Origin: an uncultured Holophagales bacterium
GTDB lineage: Bacteria; Acidobacteriota; Thermoanaerobaculia; Multivoradales; UBA5704
NCBI GenBank assembly: GCA_963842525.1
Contig: CAWJGT010000025.1
Span: 352,001-416,000, forward strand
Direction of reading: 5' to 3'
Length of the DNA: 64,000 nucleotides
The first letter of the stretch is position 1, and each line of letters starts with the position of its first letter. Positions 2,949 through 55,199 of this stretch are shown here, piece after piece. The notes beneath the pieces are model-generated. The model made no database searches and had not been told where the DNA came from. It was given only the letters and a program-made list of their open reading frames with translations. A program made the position numbers and the translations under genes.

Positions 2949-4215
2949 TCAGGCCCGCGTCCGCCGCTCGCGCTGGAGCGTGCCCGCGATCTCGCTGGCG
3001 AGCTCCACGGTCAGGCGCTCCTCCTCGCAGGCCTTCCGGAACATGACGAGCGCGGCCAGGGCCTCGCGGTGGACGTCCCGCGATTCGAAGACCGGCATGA
3101 TCTCGGCCGCGAGCCGCTTGAGGTCGCCGGTCCGGTGCTCCTGCGCATAGAGGATGGCCAGGTCGAGCGACACCACGGCGGCGTCGTAGCCCATCCGCCG
3201 CTGCAGGAATTCCTGCTGGACCTGCCGGAACGTCTGCTCAGCCTCGACGAGCTGACCCAAACCGTGAGCGATCTTCGCTTCGGTCCAGTGGAGGCGAACC
3301 AGATCCAGGGGCTTGGCAAGTCGAGAGAAGGACTCTCGCACTGAGGGCAATAAGCTGCTCGCCTCCGCGTGCCGGCCCGCGAGGCTCAAGCAGGTGACCA
3401 GGTTGTGCCGGGCATACAGGTTCAGATGCGGCTCCGCATCCGGGTCGATCTCCTCGATACCCTGGCGGAGCAGCTCGACCGCCGCCGTCACATCTCCGGT
3501 TTCCTCCAGGAGCTTGGCTTTTTTCAGAATGGCCATCCCGAGCCCGTGGGAATCTTCCCCTTCCCGGTAAAGCACCAGGGCACGGTCCGTCAGAGTCAGG
3601 GCCTCCCCAAACCGCCGCTGATCCCTCCGGAGAGAGCCTTCATGTCGAGGATCTCCGCCGCGACCAGCGGGTTGCCGGTCATGCTTTCGCCCAGGTGCTT
3701 CTCCGCCTTGCGGAAAGCGGTCTCTGCGCTCCTGCGCTCCCCAGGATCCGCCGGCCGTTTCCGAGATAGGCGAAGGCGCGCGCATGCAGGTCGGAGATCC
3801 AATGCGGGTCATAGGCGGTCTCGAGATGCTGGGCCGCGTGCAACGCCAGCTCGGCCAGGTTGACAGCCGAGGCCGGATCCTCGAAGGCTGCCTCCAGACT
3901 CTTTTTGAGCAGGTGCTGACAAACGGCCCAGCTCTGGAAGCCCGGATCGTCGGCCACCATCCCGAGCTGCTCGTCGAAGGGGTGACGCAGCAGCTCGGCG
4001 ACGAGCGAGGGAGCCTCCTGTCCCTCGAAGACGGCGACACGCTCGTCCCAATGGCCGACCTCGCGTTTGAGACGCTGGATCTCCTCATAGCGCTCGCTGC
4101 AGGCAGGGCAGCTCGCCAGGAGGTGCGGGATCACCTTGGTGTACAGGTCATCGCTCTCCAGGTCACCGGCCAGCCACTTCGCCATCATTTCGAGCGACAG
4201 ATGAGCGTCTTTCAA
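2949..4215 (-). CDS. TPR protein with N-terminal HL..CPAC zinc-finger-like segment; two frameshifts (~3740, ~3635), probably sequencing errors
   Basis: ORFs 3679-4215, part of 3596-3802 and the 3' part of 2949-4088 join into one helical-repeat protein ending VHREALAALVMFRKA; TTG start with AAGGAGG SD; C-terminus similar to the 51.5-54.3 kb TPR genes. Confidence 0.8.
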
Positions 4216-4342
4216 GGGTCCCTCCTTAGGAAAAGAAATGCTCCCACTCTATGAAGTTGCCGCAGGAGGATAATCCGTGACACGCCGGGAAAAAAAGATG
4301 GGGCCGGTCCTGGCCAGCCCCCGAGCTCGCGGCCAAGCGCTT

Positions 4343-4639
4343 CTAGCCGTGCGGATCGATGGTCGCCCCCACGTCGCCGTCGGAAGTCACTCCGCTCGAG
4401 CCATCACCCTGTCCTGGGTTCCCGTGCGGATCGAGCCCGGCACCGACCATCCCCCAGATGCCGACGATCGCCTCCCAGGCCCGCGTCAGGACACTCATCG
4501 GCCGGCCGTGATCCCGCTGCTCCCACTGCTGGGGCTCGGTGTCCCAGCCGAGCACCCCGGCGAAGGAAGCAACAGGCAGCAGCGCAAGCAGTCCGGCCAG
4601 AACCACGGGGAGTGTACGCCTCCAAATCTTCGAAGACAT
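4343..4639 (-). CDS. small secreted protein (98 aa) with two GAx[LI]DPHG repeats
   Basis: signal peptide MSSKIWRRTLPVVLAGLLALLPVASFA, Trp amphipathic helix AWEAIVGIW, GAGLDPHG and C-terminal GATIDPHG; paralogous motif at 51263 and 52382. Confidence 0.75.
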   Translation of the reverse strand: MSSKIWRRTLPVVLAGLLALLPVASFAGVLGWDTEPQQWEQRDHGRPMSVLTRAWEAIVGIWGMVGAGLDPHGNPGQGDGSSGVTSDGDVGATIDPHG

Positions 4640-46420: not shown

Positions 46421-46642
46421 CTAGTCGGGCTCGTCGAGCGGAGCCTTCCCCGCCGCCTCATACCGCGCGGCTTCGGCGATCTCGCGCCGGGCGGTCCGGA
46501 CCAGCCTGTCCCGTATCCAGTCGGACAGACTGGTCCCGGTCAGCTCCGCGGCTTGCCGGATCAATGCGTCGTGGTCCCGGGTCAGCCTGATCCGGATGGA
46601 CTCTGAGTGCGTGCGGTTCTCGTCCTTCTTAGGTCTAGCCAT
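46421..46642 (-). CDS. ribbon-helix-helix DNA-binding protein (DUF1778-like)
   Basis: MARPKK..SIRIRLT....LIRQAAELTGTSLSDWIR. Confidence 0.8.
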   Translation of the reverse strand: MARPKKDENRTHSESIRIRLTRDHDALIRQAAELTGTSLSDWIRDRLVRTARREIAEAARYEAAGKAPLDEPD

Positions 46643-46650
46643 GGTTCAAA

Positions 46651-46732
46651 ATTGTATGCCTATGCGACCCACAAATCAAGAGGGAATATCTCGCCGAAAC
46701 CCCTTGACAAGTGTGCCACGTGGGCATACAAT
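46651..46732. promoter_or_regulatory. divergent sigma70 promoter pair
   Basis: plus strand TTGACA(46704)-N17-TACAAT; minus strand TTGATT(46679)-N17-TACAAT; shared 10-bp GGCATACAAT inverted repeat. Confidence 0.75.
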
Positions 46733-46755
46733 AACTCCAGAGTCGAGACAGAGAC

Positions 46756-47733
46756 ATGGACGCCACCACCCCCACCCTGACAGCCCTGGTCTGCCGCACA
46801 TGCGGCGGGCCGACCATTGGCTGGGGGCGGGACGCCAACCGCAACCCCCGCCGGTTCTGCAAGGCTTGCAGGAAGAGCTACGGGATCATCCCGGAGCGTC
46901 CCCTCGGCCGGATGAGGATCGACATGGACAAGGCCGTCCTGTGCATCTCTCTCCTGACAGAGGGCGCCTCGATTCGGAGCACAGAGAGGGTTGCGGGAAT
47001 CCACCGGGACACGATCATGCGGCTCCTGCGGCTCGCTGGCGGCAAGTGCGAGGCGATCCTGGGCAAGCACCTCCAGGCCGTCCCGGTGAAGGACGTTCAG
47101 GCGGACGAGCTGTGGTGCTTCGTGGGCATGAAGGAGAAGACGAAGGCCCGGAAGCAAAACACGGACCCGGACATGGGGGACGCCTACACCTTCCTGGCGA
47201 TCGAGCGCGATTCCAAGCTCCTCCTGGCGCATCACGTCGGCCGGCGCACCAGTGAGGATGCGAACATGTTCGCCGCCAAGCTGTCCGCCGCCGTGGGAAG
47301 CGACCGCTTCCAGATCTCGACGGACGGGCTGGACGCTTACCCGGAAGCCCTTGAATCTCATTTGGGCGGCCGGATCGACTATGCCCAGATCATCAAAACC
47401 TTTTCAGGTGAGGGACTCGACAGCGAACGGCGGTATTCTCCGCCGTCCATAATAGCCACCGAAAAGAGAGTTATTTCCGGGAGCCCGGATGAGTCCCGGA
47501 TCTGCACGAGCCATGTGGAGCGGGTCAACCTGCACGTGCGGATGATGTCCCGGCGGTTCACCCGCCTAACCACGGGATTCTCGAAGAAGCGGGAGGCTCT
47601 GAAGTCGGCGGTTGCCGTGTTCGTGGCGTCTTACAACTTCTGCTGGCGCCACTCGACGCTCCGGATGTCGCCCGCGATGCATGCGGGACTCACCCGGAAG
47701 GTATGGACGGTGCGCGATCTGCTGGTAGGCTAG
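46756..47733 (+). CDS. IS1-family DDE transposase
   Basis: CxxC..CxxC zinc ribbon, HTH (SIRSTERVAGIHRDT), ADELWCFV, STDGLDAY, HVERVNLHVRMMSRRFTRLTTGFSKK. Confidence 0.9.
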   Translation: MDATTPTLTALVCRTCGGPTIGWGRDANRNPRRFCKACRKSYGIIPERPLGRMRIDMDKAVLCISLLTEGASIRSTERVAGIHRDTIMRLLRLAGGKCEAILGKHLQAVPVKDVQADELWCFVGMKEKTKARKQNTDPDMGDAYTFLAIERDSKLLLAHHVGRRTSEDANMFAAKLSAAVGSDRFQISTDGLDAYPEALESHLGGRIDYAQIIKTFSGEGLDSERRYSPPSIIATEKRVISGSPDESRICTSHVERVNLHVRMMSRRFTRLTTGFSKKREALKSAVAVFVASYNFCWRHSTLRMSPAMHAGLTRKVWTVRDLLVG

Positions 47734-49993: not shown

Positions 49994-51053
49994 TTACGCT
50001 GCTGCCGGCTGGCGGCACAGCTCGTAATCCTCGCCGCTGATCCAGAGCCGGTGCAGCAGCATCGCCAGTTTCCGGGCCACGGCCACCACCGCTCGCTTCT
50101 TGCCGTTTTTGCCTCCACGCCGCGCCAGTTCCAGTCCGAACCTGCGTAGATCGCTGTCCTGGCCGAAAGGACCGAGGATGTAGTGCGCGGCCTGCACCAG
50201 CAGCCAGCGCAACAGCCGGTCGCCCTGCTTGGTGATCGGCAACTGCGGCGTCGAGCTGCCCGAGCTTCGACTTGCTGGCACCAATCCCAGGTAGGCCCCC
50301 ACCGAGCGCGAGCGAGCAAAACGATGCGGATCGTCCAGCGTCAACACGAAGACCAGAGACGTCAGCGCTCCCACTCCCTTGATCTGGCGCAACCGCTGCG
50401 TCACGGCAAAACGCTGCGCCCACGCCTCAATGTCTCGATCAAAGCCCCCGATCCGCTCACTCAGATCAGCGATCACCGCCAACAGCGGCTCCAGAGAAGC
50501 CTTCAGCGTCTGCGGCAAGGCCTGCGACGCACTTCGGGCGAAGCTCTTCGCCGAGCACCCCGGCAGGCGAAAGCCGAACGACTTCACCATCCCGCGGACC
50601 TGGTTGACCAGCATCGTCCGGACCTTGACCAGACCCTCCCGGGCGCGCACCACTGCCAAGGCTTGCTGCGACTCCGGGCTTCGCGCGTGCACCGGACTGA
50701 GCAACTCTGGGTCCACTCGGCCCAACTGCGCCAGGCACCGGGCATCCCGCTCGTCGCTTTTGCGCAGGCTCGATGCGATCGCCCGAACCTTGCTGGGATT
50801 GGCGGTGATCACCTGGTGGCCCAAAGATTCCAACAACCGCCGCACCCAGGGTGTGTGCGTCCCGCTCTCCAGGATGACCAAACACGGGCTTGCCCCTTCA
50901 AAGTAGCGCTGAAAGCTCGCCGAGGTCGTCGACAGACGCTTCTCTTCCAAGATCGCTCCCCGTTTCTCGATCCAGACGACAGATCTGACTCGAACGGTCC
51001 CCAAGGTCTACGCCCACCACCGCCTCCACCTCCACTCTGATAGCATTCTTCAT
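49994..51053 (-). CDS. IS110 DEDD recombinase (one frameshift in a G run ~50960)
   Basis: VGVDLG, ILESG, KSDERDA, IKGVG, AYLGLVP..SSG, ITKQGD, AVVAVARKL. Confidence 0.92.
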
Positions 51054-51262
51054 GGCCACCCTCCTTTCTTGCGCTTTCCAGCGCTTAAATATTCCCAGTT
51101 TGCAGGGCCATTTTAAGGCACTGCGCACCGGGAGGGTGGCCTTCTCATCCCATCTCTACGGTGGCGATACCGGCAGTGGTGGTTTCAGGCACCTTGTTTG
51201 ATGAACGCGGCCCGCACGGTCCAGGACGGCCCGGCGGCGGCGCTGCGTGGGAGACTCCCATC

Positions 51263-51541
51263 ATGCACCGCACGGCCGTTGCCTTTGTTCTCGCTGCTTC
51301 GATCCTGACGTCCCCCAGCCTTTTCGACCCCCTTTGGAACCTGCTTTCCTCGCTCTGGAGCCACTCAACCACGGAGTCAGGGTGCCGCATTGATCCGTTG
51401 GGCCACTGCCTCCCCGGGACCGAGCCGGCGGCGGACACAGGTTGCGGCTGGGATCCCTACGGCCGGTGTCTCCCGGACACGCAGCCGGCGTCGGATTCGG
51501 GTTGCGGTATGGACCCTTGGGGCTGCCCGCAGGGCTCATGA
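51263..51541 (+). CDS. small secreted protein (92 aa) with three GCxxDPxGxC repeats
   Basis: hydrophobic N-terminus, LWNLLSSLW helix, ESGCRIDPLGHC, DTGCGWDPYGRC, DSGCGMDPWGC. Confidence 0.8.
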   Translation: MHRTAVAFVLAASILTSPSLFDPLWNLLSSLWSHSTTESGCRIDPLGHCLPGTEPAADTGCGWDPYGRCLPDTQPASDSGCGMDPWGCPQGS

Positions 51542-52096
51542 GGCCTTGAACCGGAGGCCCTGGTCGTAGCGGGCGCGGAAGAGGAAGCGCAAGACACTGC
51601 GGGCCAGCTCGGCCGTGGCCTGTTCGCGTTCGATCGCCTCGTGGAAGAGCCGCAAGGCGGCCAGGGCCTCCCGATGGACTCCCTTGAATTCAAAGACCTT
51701 GGCCAGCTCCGGTGCGAGCGCCTTGACTTCTTCTTTGCGGCCCTCTTCTAAGAGCAACGCGAGCTCTTCAAGCAACGCCTGGGCGACTTCGAAGGGCAGA
51801 TCGCGCGCAGCAAATTGCCGACGGGCCTTCTCAAGTGCATCCAGGGCCTCACTGGACTGGCCGAGCCCGGCGGCGATGCGCCCTTCGAGCCACGTCACAC
51901 GACTGAGGCTGATTTTGTCGCCCAGCGCAGTGGCAGCCGCCTGGACCTGCTCCAGGAGCTCGGCGGCATCCCGGAATCGACCGACATGGGTGTAGTTGAC
52001 GGCCAGATTGAAGAAGAGCATGTAGAACAGGCGCGGATCGGCGTGGCGCTCGACCATGGGAACGGCTTGCAGGAGGGTTTCGATGGCACGGCCGTA
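51536..52096 (-). pseudogene. 3' half of a TPR regulator gene (5' deleted)
   Basis: YGRAIETLLQAVP..FNLAVNY..WLEGRIAAGLG..VHREALAALRLF..RARYDQGLRF; no N-terminal part. Confidence 0.8.
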
Positions 52097-52320
52097 CGGT
52101 GGTCCACTTGGAGCAGGGGCGCACCGCGAAGGTCAAGCAGCTTGCTGAGGGGATGTGGTGGATCTTCCAGGACCAGCAGGTGCACGAGGAGGCCCTGGCA
52201 GCCCTGAAGCTGTTTTGCGATGCGGCCAGGAAGGAGGAGACCGAAGCCGGGTGGGTGCGGCGCCTCCTTGCCTATCTCTCCCGCGCCCGAGGCAACCCCC
52301 GCCTGCGTTTCGAGCCATGA
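52097..52320 (+). pseudogene. 3' end of a second TPR regulator gene (5' deleted)
   Basis: close paralogue of 54057-54278 (VHL.QGRTA.VKQLAEGMWWI..RARGNPRLRFEP). Confidence 0.85.
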
Positions 52321-52330
52321 AGGGCTTGAG

Positions 52331-52360
52331 AAAAAGCGGGGCGCAGCGATCTGCGCCCCG
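52331..52360. terminator. hairpin between convergent TPR and peptide genes
   Basis: AAAAA-g-cggggcgcag-cgat-ctgcgccccg; second copy at 54293-54322. Confidence 0.75.
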
Positions 52361-52381
52361 GTGGCAGGTTAGCCCGGCGCG

Positions 52382-52657
52382 TCAGCCGATGCAGCGGCCG
52401 TCCGGGTCGAGGATGCAGCCGTTGTCGCCCGTGAGCGAGCTGGTGCCCGGGTCCGGCAGGCAGCGGCCGTTCGGGTCGATGACGCACCCGTGCTCGGCCC
52501 AGATGTGCTCGAGGAGGCCCCAGACCTGCCCCAGGAAATCCCAGGGGGTCCGGGCGCCCTCCGCAGGCGCGCGGCCGGCAGCCCTGGCGGCCGGCGCCGC
52601 GAGCACCACGACGAGAACGAACACGAAGACGACTCTCCACAGCGAGGAACGAGACAT
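52382..52657 (-). CDS. small secreted protein (91 aa) with two GCxxDPxGRC repeats
   Basis: AGGAG SD; signal peptide ending AARA; VWGLLEHIW helix; EHGCVIDPNGRC, DNGCILDPDGRCIG. Confidence 0.82.
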   Translation of the reverse strand: MSRSSLWRVVFVFVLVVVLAAPAARAAGRAPAEGARTPWDFLGQVWGLLEHIWAEHGCVIDPNGRCLPDPGTSSLTGDNGCILDPDGRCIG

Positions 52658-52799
52658 GTCCGACTCCTGTGCGGAGCACGCGCCGGAACGGCCCCCATGG
52701 CCGGCCTGGGCGTCTCCGCGCCATAGGTTGCCAGGAGTCGGACCCGAAACTAAACCCGAGAAGCCAAACACGTTGGCTCTCCACGAGGAGGAGCTGGAC

Positions 52800-54278
52800 A
52801 TGGCACAGTGGGCAGATCCCCAAGACCTCAGGCTGGTCATCATCCTGCTGCGCGAGCTCAAGGACTGGGACCAGTCGGATCTCGTCCGCGGGACCGGCAT
52901 CGACCCGTCCTCGCTCTCCAGGTACGAGGCAGCCAAAAAGACGCCCTCCCCGAAGACGCTGGCGCGGGTCGCCGCGGCCGTAGATGTGCCGTACGCCTTC
53001 GCCGAGGAGCTGATCCCCTTGTGTCGCGGCCTCCGGCTCGCCTACGAGCGCGTCGTCGCCCGCGGGGCCTTCGCAGAGGCGGATCCCGAAGCCGCCGCGG
53101 AGCTGGATCGGCGCGTCACCGAGGCCGCCCTCCGGGCGGCAGCCCCGCTGCTGCTGGAGCTGGGGGCCCTGGGGCATGGTGGACCCCGCGCCGAAGACCG
53201 CGACTGGGCAGTGGCCCAATGGGAAAGGATGAAGGACCTTCCGCTCCGAGAGCAGGAGATGATCATCGACACGTTGGACAGCGAGCGGATCTGGGCGCTG
53301 GCGGAACGGCTCAGCCAGGAAAGCATCGCCGCGGCGGCGGACCGGGCCGACCAGTGCCTGGAGCTGGCGCAGCTCGGCCTGCATGCCGCCCGGCGCATCC
53401 CGGAAGGGAGCTGGCGTTCGCTCAACGAAGGGCACGCCATGGCCTTGCTCGCCAACGCCCGCAGGGTCGGAGGCAGCCTGCCCGCCGCCCGCGAGGCGTT
53501 CGGAACCTCCGACCGTCTGGCCTGATCGAGGAGGTTCAAAGCCTCGTCGAACTTGTCATCGTCCATGAGCAGAGAAGCCTTGAGGTCCAGCCGCCGGGAG
53601 GCGTCGAGCAGGCCGGCGGGGTCGCCGCCTTCGCCGGCTTCCCATGCAGAAAGCCGGTCCGAGGCAGCCCGGGCACGCCTGCTGGTGTGCCAGTCCACGG
53701 CTTTCGTACTCCTGGGTGACGCCGAGCGTGTGGTCGAGGTCCTGGAACGTGCGGCCCCCCTGATCGACGAAAAGCGCGAGCCGCGGCAGGCCTTCGCGCA
53801 GCGCTTCAACCTCGCCGCGGGGTTCTGTGACCTGCAGCGCTACGGCGAAGCGGAGAACCTCCTGCACCGGATCCGCGAAATGGCCGTCGAGCTGGGCAAC
53901 GAGCTGGACATCACCAGGACCCTCTGGTTGGACGCGAAAATCAAGGCCGGGTTCGGGGACCTGACGGCAGCGTGCGCGGCCTTCGAGCAGGTGCGCCGGG
54001 CCCTGGAGGAGCAGAAGATCGCCTCTGACTACGCCGTGGCGAGCCTGGACCTGGCAGCGGTCCACCTGGACCAGGGGCGCACCGCGGAGGTCAAGCAGCT
54101 CGCCGAGGGGATGTGGTGGATCCTCCAGAGCCAGAAGGTGCACAAGCAGGCCCTGGCGGCCCTGAAGCTGTTTTGCGACGCGGCGAAGAAGGAGGAGGCC
54201 GATGCCGGGTGGGTGCGGCGCCTCAGTGCCTATCTCACCCGCGCCCGGGGCAATCCCCGTTTGCGCTTCGAGCCGTGA
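52800..54278 (+). pseudogene. XRE-HTH + TPR regulator (492 aa if repaired), interrupted by an internal inversion at ~53516-53654
   Basis: HTH LRELKDWDQSDLVRGTGIDPSSLSRYE; premature TGA at 53523; the missing TPR segment WEAG..RRLDLKASLL..FDEALNLLDQA is on the minus strand. Confidence 0.85.
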
Positions 54279-54340
54279 GGGGGTGGCGAAAACATCGGGG
54301 CGCAGCGATCTGCGCCCCGATGCCGGTTCAGCCCGGCACG

Positions 54341-54366
54341 TCAGCCGATGCAGCGGCCGTCCGGGT
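54341..54366 (-). pseudogene. 3' remnant of another DPxG peptide gene (..PDGRCIG*)
   Basis: 26-nt exact match to 52382-52407, in the same position relative to the TPR end and hairpin. Confidence 0.75.
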
Positions 54367-54378
54367 ACTACACGGGCG

Positions 54379-54441
54379 CCCCTCACTCCTGGCCCCTCTC
54401 CCACCCGCACTCACGCCCGCCCGGCAGAGGGGGAGGGAACG
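54379..54441. repeat. REP-like unit overlapping the metallophosphoesterase stop
   Basis: cccctcactcctggcccctctcccacccgcactcac.. similar to the 21390 copy. Confidence 0.7.
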
Positions 54442-55199
54442 TTGCTCGGTCCGCCGCCGTCGACCGCCACCTCGAAGATCCTGACCGGCGGGCCGTCCGG
54501 AAAGAGCTGTCGCAGGAGCTGGATGCTGACGTTGTAGACCGGCACGCCGGCCGCGGTCTTCCCCTCGGGCTGGCCGCGGTGGGCGTGGCCGTGGAAGACG
54601 ACGTCCACGGGGTAGCGGTGGAGCGGCTCCTCCAGCCGGCTCGAGCCGAGGAAGGGATAGATCTCCGCCGGCTCCCCCTCGACCGTCGCCTCGATCGGCG
54701 AATAGTGGAGGACGACCACCCGCGGCCGGTGGCGCAGGCGGGCGAGCGCCGACTCCAGCTTCAAGGCCTCGTCCACCGCCTCGCGGACGAAGGCCTTGAT
54801 GATGTCCTCCCCCCAAGGCCCCAGGGCGCGCTTGCCGAACCCGCCGCAGAACCCCTTGATGCCGGCGAAGCCGACTCCCTCGATCTCGCAGGCGTCGCCG
54901 TCGAGGATCTGGATGCCGCTCTCCCGTAGGAGCTCCTTGACCTCGTCCTGCTTCCCGCTTTCGAAGTCGTGATTGCCCAGCACCGCGATCACCGGCACGC
55001 CCACGGCCGAGTGGACCTCCCGGGCGAGCCCCTGGGCCTCCTCGGGCAGGCCGTGATCGGTCAGGTCGCCGCAGAGCAGCAGCACGTCGCACTCGCGGCC
55101 GGCCCGGCTCAGCTCCTCCCGCAGGCTCGGCTCCGGAAACCTGGCGTAGTGAAGGTCCCCCATCGCGCCGATGCGGACCACTCCTTTTTTTCTGGCCAT
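54411..55199 (-). CDS. metallophosphoesterase (calcineurin-like)
   Basis: GDLH, CGDLTD, LGNHD, LHYSP, FHGHAH. Confidence 0.92.
   Translation of the reverse strand: MARKKGVVRIGAMGDLHYARFPEPSLREELSRAGRECDVLLLCGDLTDHGLPEEAQGLAREVHSAVGVPVIAVLGNHDFESGKQDEVKELLRESGIQILDGDACEIEGVGFAGIKGFCGGFGKRALGPWGEDIIKAFVREAVDEALKLESALARLRHRPRVVVLHYSPIEATVEGEPAEIYPFLGSSRLEEPLHRYPVDVVFHGHAHRGQPEGKTAAGVPVYNVSIQLLRQLFPDGPPVRIFEVAVDGGGPSNVPSPSAGRA

Follow-up and report, generated by a model that had tools for sequence, protein, structure and literature searches.

In a 64,000-nucleotide stretch of an uncultured Holophagales bacterium (assembly GCA_963842525.1, contig CAWJGT010000025.1, positions 352,001 to 416,000 of the forward strand; this whole stretch is the window, and coordinates without a contig name refer to it), the region from 51263 to 54366 is a degraded cluster of three cassettes, in which two intact genes for small precursor proteins, sp1 and sp2, are found amid three inactivated genes for receptors with tetratricopeptide repeats (TPR). 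These genes belong to a large and lineage-specific family, as yet without a name, that is found in soil Acidobacteria and whose precursors each carry a signal-like N-terminus, a helix with a conserved L and W, and then DPxG units. By analogy with the RRNPP systems of Bacillota we hypothesize, with a confidence that falls somewhat short of even, that the family constitutes a peptide-signal/cytoplasmic-receptor system; the copy in the window is degraded.

Precursor and receptor genes in this genome and beyond

A search with an iterated hidden Markov model (HMM) seeded with sp2 converged on 65 precursor open reading frames (ORFs) in the 9.95-Mb genome, which hold one, two, three or four DPxG units in 24, 22, 18 and 1 cases, respectively. 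The C-terminal domain of the receptors was found in 99 frames by phmmer and in 119 by profile. In the first search, 49 of the 65 precursors were located less than 1 kb from a receptor C-terminal domain, with 1.5 expected, and with the profile 60 of the 65 lay less than 1.5 kb away, compared to a mean of 2.4 and a maximum of 7 in 200 random draws; three of the five unlinked precursors are at contig ends. The original prediction for this locus, made from its letters alone, had proposed as a check the genome-wide adjacency of matches to a motif HMM to HTH-TPR genes, and such adjacency is observed both here (60/65) and in all 11 of the 11 loci retrieved from other genomes.

Two layouts recur in the genome. 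In type A, a precursor with Cys loops is convergent with one gene encoding an XRE-type helix-turn-helix (HTH) domain and TPRs (20 cases); a second such gene usually lies divergently on its other side, leaving the peptide gene sandwiched by twin receptors, and some of these arrangements occur in tandem (contig C14). Accordingly, the convergent pair originally described is indeed present, but the unit to which it belongs is a peptide gene with twin receptors, one convergent and one divergent. In the commoner type B (26 cases), the precursor is located upstream of, and on the same strand as, a TPR gene without an XRE domain. The type B precursors usually have no Cys loop, 16 of the 20 retrieved end exactly in DP[NDH]G, with ends of the IDPNG type, and at the N-terminus of their receptors an H-x4-C-x2-C motif replaces the HTH domain. 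One of these receptors (G000:C32:4457-4540) scored above the Pfam cut-off for zf-HC2, and when nine of the N-termini were compared with that family one gave a weak match (E = 0.057) and the other eight nothing; the zf-HC2 label for type B receptors is a weak one and serves as a lead only.

A basic N-terminus and a hydrophobic core were present in 103 of 104 aligned precursors, and the proteins are predicted to be exported via a Sec-type signal peptide. A reading of the precursors as lipoproteins was considered and rejected, since the Cys found in some of the signal peptides is not placed within a lipobox, as that motif is commonly understood. The D-P-x-G core never varies, and the D-x-G that precedes it by three residues is almost as constant, the unit being D-x-G-x-x-[ILM]-D-P-x-G, and the L and W of the helix are likewise nearly invariant. 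At the variable positions, units within one precursor are more alike (0.588) than units of different precursors (0.308; the maximum in 1000 shuffles was 0.374), and 21 of the 65 precursors terminate exactly at DPxG. Many members of the family are free of cysteines, and for this reason the disulfide loop cannot be the essential feature.

To describe the receptor, an intact type A protein of 483 residues (L049:523-1971) was modelled with 66 homologues. The model (predicted local distance difference test score, pLDDT, 90.4) comprises an HTH domain of five helices, then one long helix and some 17 more, that is, an all-helical receptor in which an XRE HTH domain is followed by a TPR superhelix of about 370 residues. 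No window resembling a membrane span was found in the 66 type A or in 8 type B receptors, the median peak hydropathy of the 66 aligned proteins being 1.19 with charged residues in the peak windows, and the receptor is predicted to be soluble and cytoplasmic. An N-x-x-R-[VIL] motif, 83-95 residues before the C-terminal domain, is carried by 38 of the 44 intact receptors, types A and B taken together, and by all 66 of the 66 homologues.

Structural comparison of the model was carried out in two ways, by re-alignment of the best 966 chains given by Foldseek and by a search, independent of Foldseek, of 48,161 representative chains. The re-alignment placed first APPBP2 with its RxxGP degron (Z score 22.7), followed by Rap of phi3T (20.9), RapJ (20.7), RapF (20.4), LGN (about 20) and NprR (19.2 and 18.6), peptide-bound Rap and NprR proteins being among the best matches over about 295 residues. 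In the second search the scores were 21.8 for APPBP2, 19.2 for LGN, 19.0-18.6 for APC subunits, 17.9 for NprR, 17.8 for both RapI and phi105 Rap, 15.2 for PlcR and 15.0 for AimR, with NprR, RapI and phi105 Rap at ranks 6-9. As modelled, the receptor domain is a peptide-binding-type TPR superhelix of the size found in Rap and NprR, and the RRNPP proteins do not stand above unrelated TPR proteins.

Distances between peptides were found to be correlated with distances between receptors (Mantel r = 0.40, reached by none of 2000 permutations), and this holds within type A (r = 0.27; 19/2000) and within type B (r = 0.22; 7/2000). In the receptor tree type A forms a single clade nested among type B, and at five loci (on C7, C11, C9 at 1445 kb, C1 and C14) the receptors on either side of one peptide gene form sister branches. 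The same correspondence extends to the locus in the window, where the receptor fragment facing sp1 (stump A) clusters with the receptors of C31, whose peptides are sp1-like, and the receptor divergent from sp2 (receptor C) clusters with that of C5, whose peptide is the best match of sp2. In the sequences compared, these relationships show that cassettes duplicate and diverge as units, which does not in itself prove contact between the partners. At a locus on C7 (G000:C7:90941-94385) the two receptors on either side of one precursor gene are nearly identical in their TPR part and differ in the HTH region, which suggests gene conversion or a recent duplication of the sensor domain alone.

Beyond this genome, the precursor profile matched 4208 cluster representatives at E <= 1e-3 and 1194 at E <= 1e-10 among 1.84 billion, mostly proteins of 85-150 residues; of ten representatives looked up, five were named 'hypothetical protein' and five were unnamed, and the three Atlas clusters viewed were all 'hypothetical protein'. 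Receptor homologues carry the name 'Thermoanaerobaculia bacterium' and the Atlas clusters are of Acidobacteriota, and the lineage of the family is probably the class Thermoanaerobaculia of that phylum. All 18 genomes of the same taxonomic family gave matches to the peptide profile (6-55 each), and of 12 further genomes from the order 6 did so too, the receptor C-terminal domain being distributed in the same way. Across the phylum, in a weak survey of 301 evenly sampled genomes with just 17 candidates scored per genome, matches were confined to this genome and one of the same family. Over 31 genomes, which are related and not independent, the copy numbers of peptides and receptors are closely correlated (Spearman 0.96), and none of the 31 has the peptide without the receptor. 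The 11 loci retrieved, each from a different genome (five congeners and six genomes from five other genera), show a convergent receptor C-terminal domain in 11 cases and a divergent HTH gene in 8.

The three cassettes of the locus

The first precursor gene, sp1 (51263..51541, plus strand), is an intact ORF for a protein of 92 residues with a short signal peptide, a W-x6-W helix (LWNLLSSLW) and three Cys-loop units, ESGCRIDPLGHC, DTGCGWDPYGRC and DSGCGMDPWGC, which follow the pattern [DE]-x-G-C-x-x-D-P-x-G-(x)-C. The second, sp2 (52382..52657, minus strand), is likewise an intact ORF, for a protein of 91 residues with a strongly signal-like N-terminus, two W-x6-W motifs and two Cys-loop units, EHGCVIDPNGRC and DNGCILDPDGRC. 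Both N-termini resemble signal peptides, with K or R within residues 1-12 and a 12-residue hydropathy peak of 2.4 in sp1 and 3.7 in sp2, and both proteins match the family HMM; no Pfam family was found for either, and no NCBIfam family for the two and two paralogues. A third small gene is represented by its last 26 nt, including the stop codon (54341..54366, minus strand), convergent with receptor C. The two intact genes, the 26-nt remnant and the shared signal-like N-terminus, W-x6-W and two to three DPxG units are all found in the sequence as the original prediction had described them.

The remnant is part of a direct repeat in which 52331-52407 and 54290-54366 are 90% identical, continued by 52101-52334 and 54059-54292 at 87%, and which contains a receptor 3' end, a hairpin and the final 26 nt of the small gene. 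This hairpin (52337..52360, minus strand), GC-rich, with 10 pairs and followed by a T-run, is terminator-like and located 3' of sp2, with its copy at 54293-54319. On the other side of sp2, the intergenic region 52658..52799 separates it from the divergent receptor C and, from this layout, is presumed to be a shared control region; a scan for sigma-70-type consensus sites, which is uninformative for this phylum, gave none. A copy of a dispersed GC-rich repeat of about 55 nt is found at 54378..54432, with 131 other matches in the genome by blastn-short and copies in congeners; it can form a hairpin, and 12 nt separate it from the place at which the third small gene breaks off.

Opposite sp1, sp2 and the remnant there is in each case the 3' end of a TPR gene whose product terminates in ...VH..ALAAL...RA....LRF, and the same signature at all three bears out the predicted convergence with a single TPR family. 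The stop codons of sp1 and its neighbor had been thought to overlap in TCATGA (51536-51541), but in the sequence they abut back to back and do not overlap. Two tandem cassettes with sp1-like precursors are found elsewhere in the genome (G000:C31:16410-20599), and in these the precursor and receptor frames abut in the same gapless manner as at TCATGA; this abutment is thus conserved in the sp1-like subfamily.

The receptor genes were mapped by tblastn of seven intact paralogous receptors against 51000-54700, and all three proved to be disrupted, which the original prediction had not noticed. Stump A (51536..52099, minus strand), convergent with sp1, retains only the last ~184 residues (TPR_12, 2.7e-7; positions 5-182 of the C-terminal domain HMM), and the intact paralogues map onto 52108..51539 of the minus strand from residues ~305-368 to their end. 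Stump B' (52100..52320, plus strand), convergent with sp2, retains only the last ~72 residues (HMM positions 115-183), corresponding to paralogue residues ~417-476 to the end at 52096-52317 of the plus strand, and its DNA is 87% identical to 54059-54292. The two stumps are joined head to head at 52099/52100, a fusion that would be best explained by a single deletion spanning the 5' portions of two divergently transcribed receptor genes.

Receptor C (52800..54278, plus strand), divergent from sp2, encodes an XRE HTH domain (HTH_3, 7.5e-10 in Pfam, on 52800-53522) and TPRs with a complete C-terminal domain (HMM positions 1-183, 2.1e-68), and had been regarded as the best-preserved TPR gene of the cluster. 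The HTH domain is confirmed, but the gene is broken by an internal inversion and an in-frame TGA (53523-53525, codon 242). The inverted segment (53506..53664) is bounded by an inverted repeat matching at 11 of 13 positions (53506-53518 and 53652-53664), and for six of the seven paralogues the match to 53510-53695 is on the minus strand, where it would be expected from its place in the protein, the best with E = 2e-10 and 50% identity over 62 residues. When the segment was re-inverted in silico, a single open frame of 492 codons was obtained, the identity of residues 238-287 to a paralogue rose from 11/50 to 29/50 and the bit scores increased by 23-44 with each of four paralogues. Since the paralogues match the minus strand and re-inversion restores the frame, receptor C is inactivated by an intragenic inversion of about 150 bp.

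An orthologous locus was not found in a DNA search of five congeners, where the best matches were paralogue-like pieces of about 70% identity. Of the sampled words, 12% are present in one soil-metagenome run, whose contigs cover 51351-51605 and 52091-52263, both at 100% identity, and a 33-nt piece; they span neither the inversion nor, with adequate flanks, the 52099/52100 junction. The locus illustrates several routes of cassette decay, namely deletion, inversion and proximity to insertion sequences, and sp1 and sp2 are either relics or orphan peptides read by paralogous receptors elsewhere.

Next to the cluster, an IS110-family transposase gene (49994..51004, minus strand; Transposase_20 3.7e-19, DEDD_Tnp_IS110 4.2e-15) is found where the divergent receptor of sp1 would be expected. 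Upstream of the cluster, 46421-47733 together with 49994-51004 comprise a small gene resembling a TacA-like antitoxin or NikA and transposases of the IS1-like and IS110 types, in a stretch of lower G+C (0.615 at 46-48 kb). The window also contains a type B pair on the minus strand, consisting of a 98-residue precursor (4343..4639) without Cys loops, ending in ...IDPHG and matching the family HMM at 3.2e-15, and, downstream of it, a receptor gene (2949..4248) with the H-x4-C-x2-C motif and a C-terminal domain match of 3.8e-68, split over two overlapping frames.

Proposed peptide signalling and its rivals

In the RRNPP-like reading that we tentatively favour, the precursor would be exported and then cut into short peptides around its DPxG units, and these would re-enter the cytoplasm, possibly via an Opp-type importer, bind the concave face of the TPR superhelix and so change the state of the DNA-binding domain. 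A private specificity of each of the ~60 pairs could stem from the variable positions next to the invariant DPxG, and it is an attractive idea that N-x-x-R-[VIL] acts as an invariant anchor of the receptor facing the DPxG of the peptide. Three genes for binding proteins of the Opp/Dpp type (SBP_bac_5) are present in the genome. The structure predicted for sp2 (pLDDT 68.7; predicted template modelling score, pTM, 0.32) displays a signal helix (residues 4-27) and an amphipathic helix (38-55), followed by two small hairpins at the Cys loops with linkers between them and no compact fold; it fits a beads-on-a-string pro-peptide, a flexible secreted protein being conceivable as well. Of the RRNPP-like system originally proposed, the layout is upheld, a small signal-peptide gene being found beside a soluble HTH-TPR gene with 60 of the 65 precursors linked, but homology to RRNPP is not established.

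Several observations weigh against the RRNPP-like reading. Generic TPR proteins were returned first by Foldseek (LGN, designed TPRs, MalT domain III) and PlcR only at rank 42, and the scores of Rap and NprR are tied with those of unrelated TPR proteins (21.8-22.7 for APPBP2, ~19-20 for LGN, ~19 for APC subunits). Likewise, a profile search of the PDB sequences gave no match of the TPR domain to RRNPP receptors, the hits being to HTH domains (Rgg 5.7e-4, PlcR 7e-3) and to generic TPRs only. Acidobacteriota are a diderm phylum, and a peptide of ~1 kDa would have to cross an outer membrane. Known RRNPP pro-peptides have no counterpart of the invariant DPxG or of the conserved Trp helix, which could instead serve a structural or membrane-active purpose, and the Cys loops differ from the known signals, which are linear. 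Among the best 150 precursor homologues, four (P0001, P0003, P0008 and P0059) are proteins of 639-783 residues with 9-13 matched stretches, and in P0001 many G-x-x-DPNG-[KR] units are found between an N-terminal and a C-terminal domain; therefore the DPxG unit is also used outside small precursors. The co-diversification of peptides and receptors would arise from co-duplication of neighboring genes alone. Finally, about a third of the receptor genes look disrupted, as 25 of the 69 with a full C-terminal domain have no 230 open codons upstream, and 50 further matches are partial domains; this reflects either rapid turnover or indel errors of the assembly, and the deletion junction and the inversion described above are structural and not of the indel-error type.

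Some of these features are those expected if the small proteins were themselves the end product, as membrane-active or antimicrobial mini-proteins, metal- or cell-wall-binding modules or protease-inhibitor-like loops, with the HTH-TPR neighbors controlling their expression upon another cue and no feedback from peptide to receptor. We regard such a regulated secreted effector as rather unlikely. In its favour, a conserved Trp-rich amphipathic helix and disulfide-closed hairpins are features typically seen in stable mini-proteins that are secreted, DPxG units are also present in at least one long secreted protein, and adjacency and co-duplication suit a regulator and its target equally well. Nevertheless, the effector would leave unexplained why, over ~60 copies, every small gene has stayed paired with one or more receptors of its own, all from one family, why flanking twin receptors remain sister branches in the sensor domain and why so many precursors stop exactly at DPxG; moreover, the absence of a compact fold in the sp2 model and the dispensability of the cysteines in many members weigh against the effector as well.

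A switch coupled to secretion would dispense with import through two membranes. In this mechanism the TPR protein would hold the unexported precursor, and its HTH domain would be freed or blocked according to the state of export, reporting export capacity and not cell density. TPR chaperones bind type III secretion substrates in the cytoplasm, both partners are synthesised there, the receptor is predicted to be soluble and its superhelix resembles peptide-binding TPRs in general. We consider this switch improbable, given that the signal peptides of the precursors are of the ordinary Sec type, which is as a rule engaged during translation or early after it, and that near-identical repeated units and exact DPxG ends are better explained by the release of several peptides. 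Precursors of the ribosomally synthesised and post-translationally modified peptide (RiPP) type, with an N-terminal leader, repeated units as modified cores and the TPR protein as scaffold or recognition element, are very improbable, for although several RiPP classes are marked by precursors in which multiple cores have conserved flanks, as is the case in this family, only precursor and receptor genes recur in the mapped loci with no modifying enzyme in the conserved cassette, the N-terminus is a classical signal peptide and not a leader, and the partner protein bears a DNA-binding domain.

Within the signalling reading, a more specific proposal may be made, which we hold to be possible but doubtful: a peptide-pheromone system of Acidobacteriota, independent of RRNPP or distantly related to it, in which multi-core precursors would give rise to DPxG peptides, some of them cyclised by disulfides, read by twin HTH-TPR receptors and by a sister branch with a zinc motif. 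If this were true, one genome would hold ~60 private channels with rapid birth and death of cassettes, the largest known peptide-receptor repertoire in one bacterium, and an intragenic inversion such as that of receptor C could switch single channels off. It would also open a way to study how members of a dominant soil phylum behave socially, and would yield many orthogonal peptide/regulator pairs. Genetically encoded peptide signals with cytoplasmic TPR receptors are known from textbooks as a trait of Gram-positive bacteria, and a comparable system with dozens of copies per genome in the abundant and poorly cultured soil Acidobacteria would shift where peptide communication is expected. The system was originally judged to be apparently undescribed, in agreement with the papers searched, in which no description of the family was found, RRNPP and Acidobacteri* were not found together, searches for Acidobacteria with tetratricopeptide, secreted peptide or quorum sensing gave nothing relevant among the papers listed, and IDPNG or DPNG returned GH32 invertase motifs and chance strings only.

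Comparison with known systems

Bacillota carry a handful of RRNPP systems per genome, compared to about 60 cassettes here. One published account presents RRNPP systems as peptide-based and as belonging to Firmicutes and the mobile elements of these bacteria (PMC10075063). The homologues of the present family are of Acidobacteriota, outside Bacillota and their mobile elements.

The NprR-NprX and PlcR-PapR systems of the Bacillus cereus group share with the cassettes a cytoplasmic XRE-HTH and TPR receptor adjoining a gene for a pro-peptide with a signal peptide. NprR matched the model with Z scores of 19.2 and 18.6 in the re-alignment and of 17.9, rank 6 of 48,161, in the second search, whereas PlcR scored 15.2 across HTH and TPR and is matched in sequence via its HTH domain alone (7e-3). 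In contrast to these systems, the TPR part shows no sequence similarity to theirs, the host is a diderm of another phylum, the precursors contain one to four units with an invariant DPxG, often Cys loops, and a conserved Trp helix, and the peptide gene, in convergent or divergent orientation, is in many cases placed between two receptors. The arbitrium system of SPbeta-like phages, AimR-AimP, likewise pairs an HTH-TPR receptor with an exported pro-peptide bearing a C-terminal signal, but it is phage-borne in Bacillota hosts, with a single peptide and co-directional genes, and AimR (Z 15.0, rank 24) is a weaker match than Rap or NprR.

Type B receptors recall the zf-HC2 (PF13490) anti-sigma factors in starting with ...H-x4-C-x2-C..., but the spacing in zf-HC2 is H-x3-C-x2-C, and a systematic sigma-factor neighbor is not established. 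APPBP2, a reader of the RxxGP C-degron, and LGN/Pins belong to unrelated biology and yet reach the highest or equal scores (22.7 and 21.8 for APPBP2, 19-20 for LGN); both hold an extended peptide in their groove, and APPBP2 reads a C-terminal ...G-P motif. Accordingly, the fold match means a peptide-binding TPR superhelix of such size and not membership of RRNPP.

The best RRNPP fold matches are found among the Rap-Phr systems of Bacillus, phages and plasmids, with Z scores of 20.9 for phi3T Rap, 20.7 for RapJ-PhrC and 20.4 for RapF-PhrF (~292-300 residues, root-mean-square deviation 3.7-4.3). These also occur as many paralogous pairs per genome, their mature peptide derives from the C-terminal part of an exported precursor, and some phr genes contain repeated peptide motifs. 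In contrast, Rap has no HTH domain and acts on proteins, the output here being an XRE HTH or a Cys/His motif domain, and no sequence homology to Rap was detected. The closest known systems are NprR-NprX and PlcR-PapR, on account of their HTH-TPR receptors, and Rap-Phr, which provides the best fold match and, likewise, many pairs.

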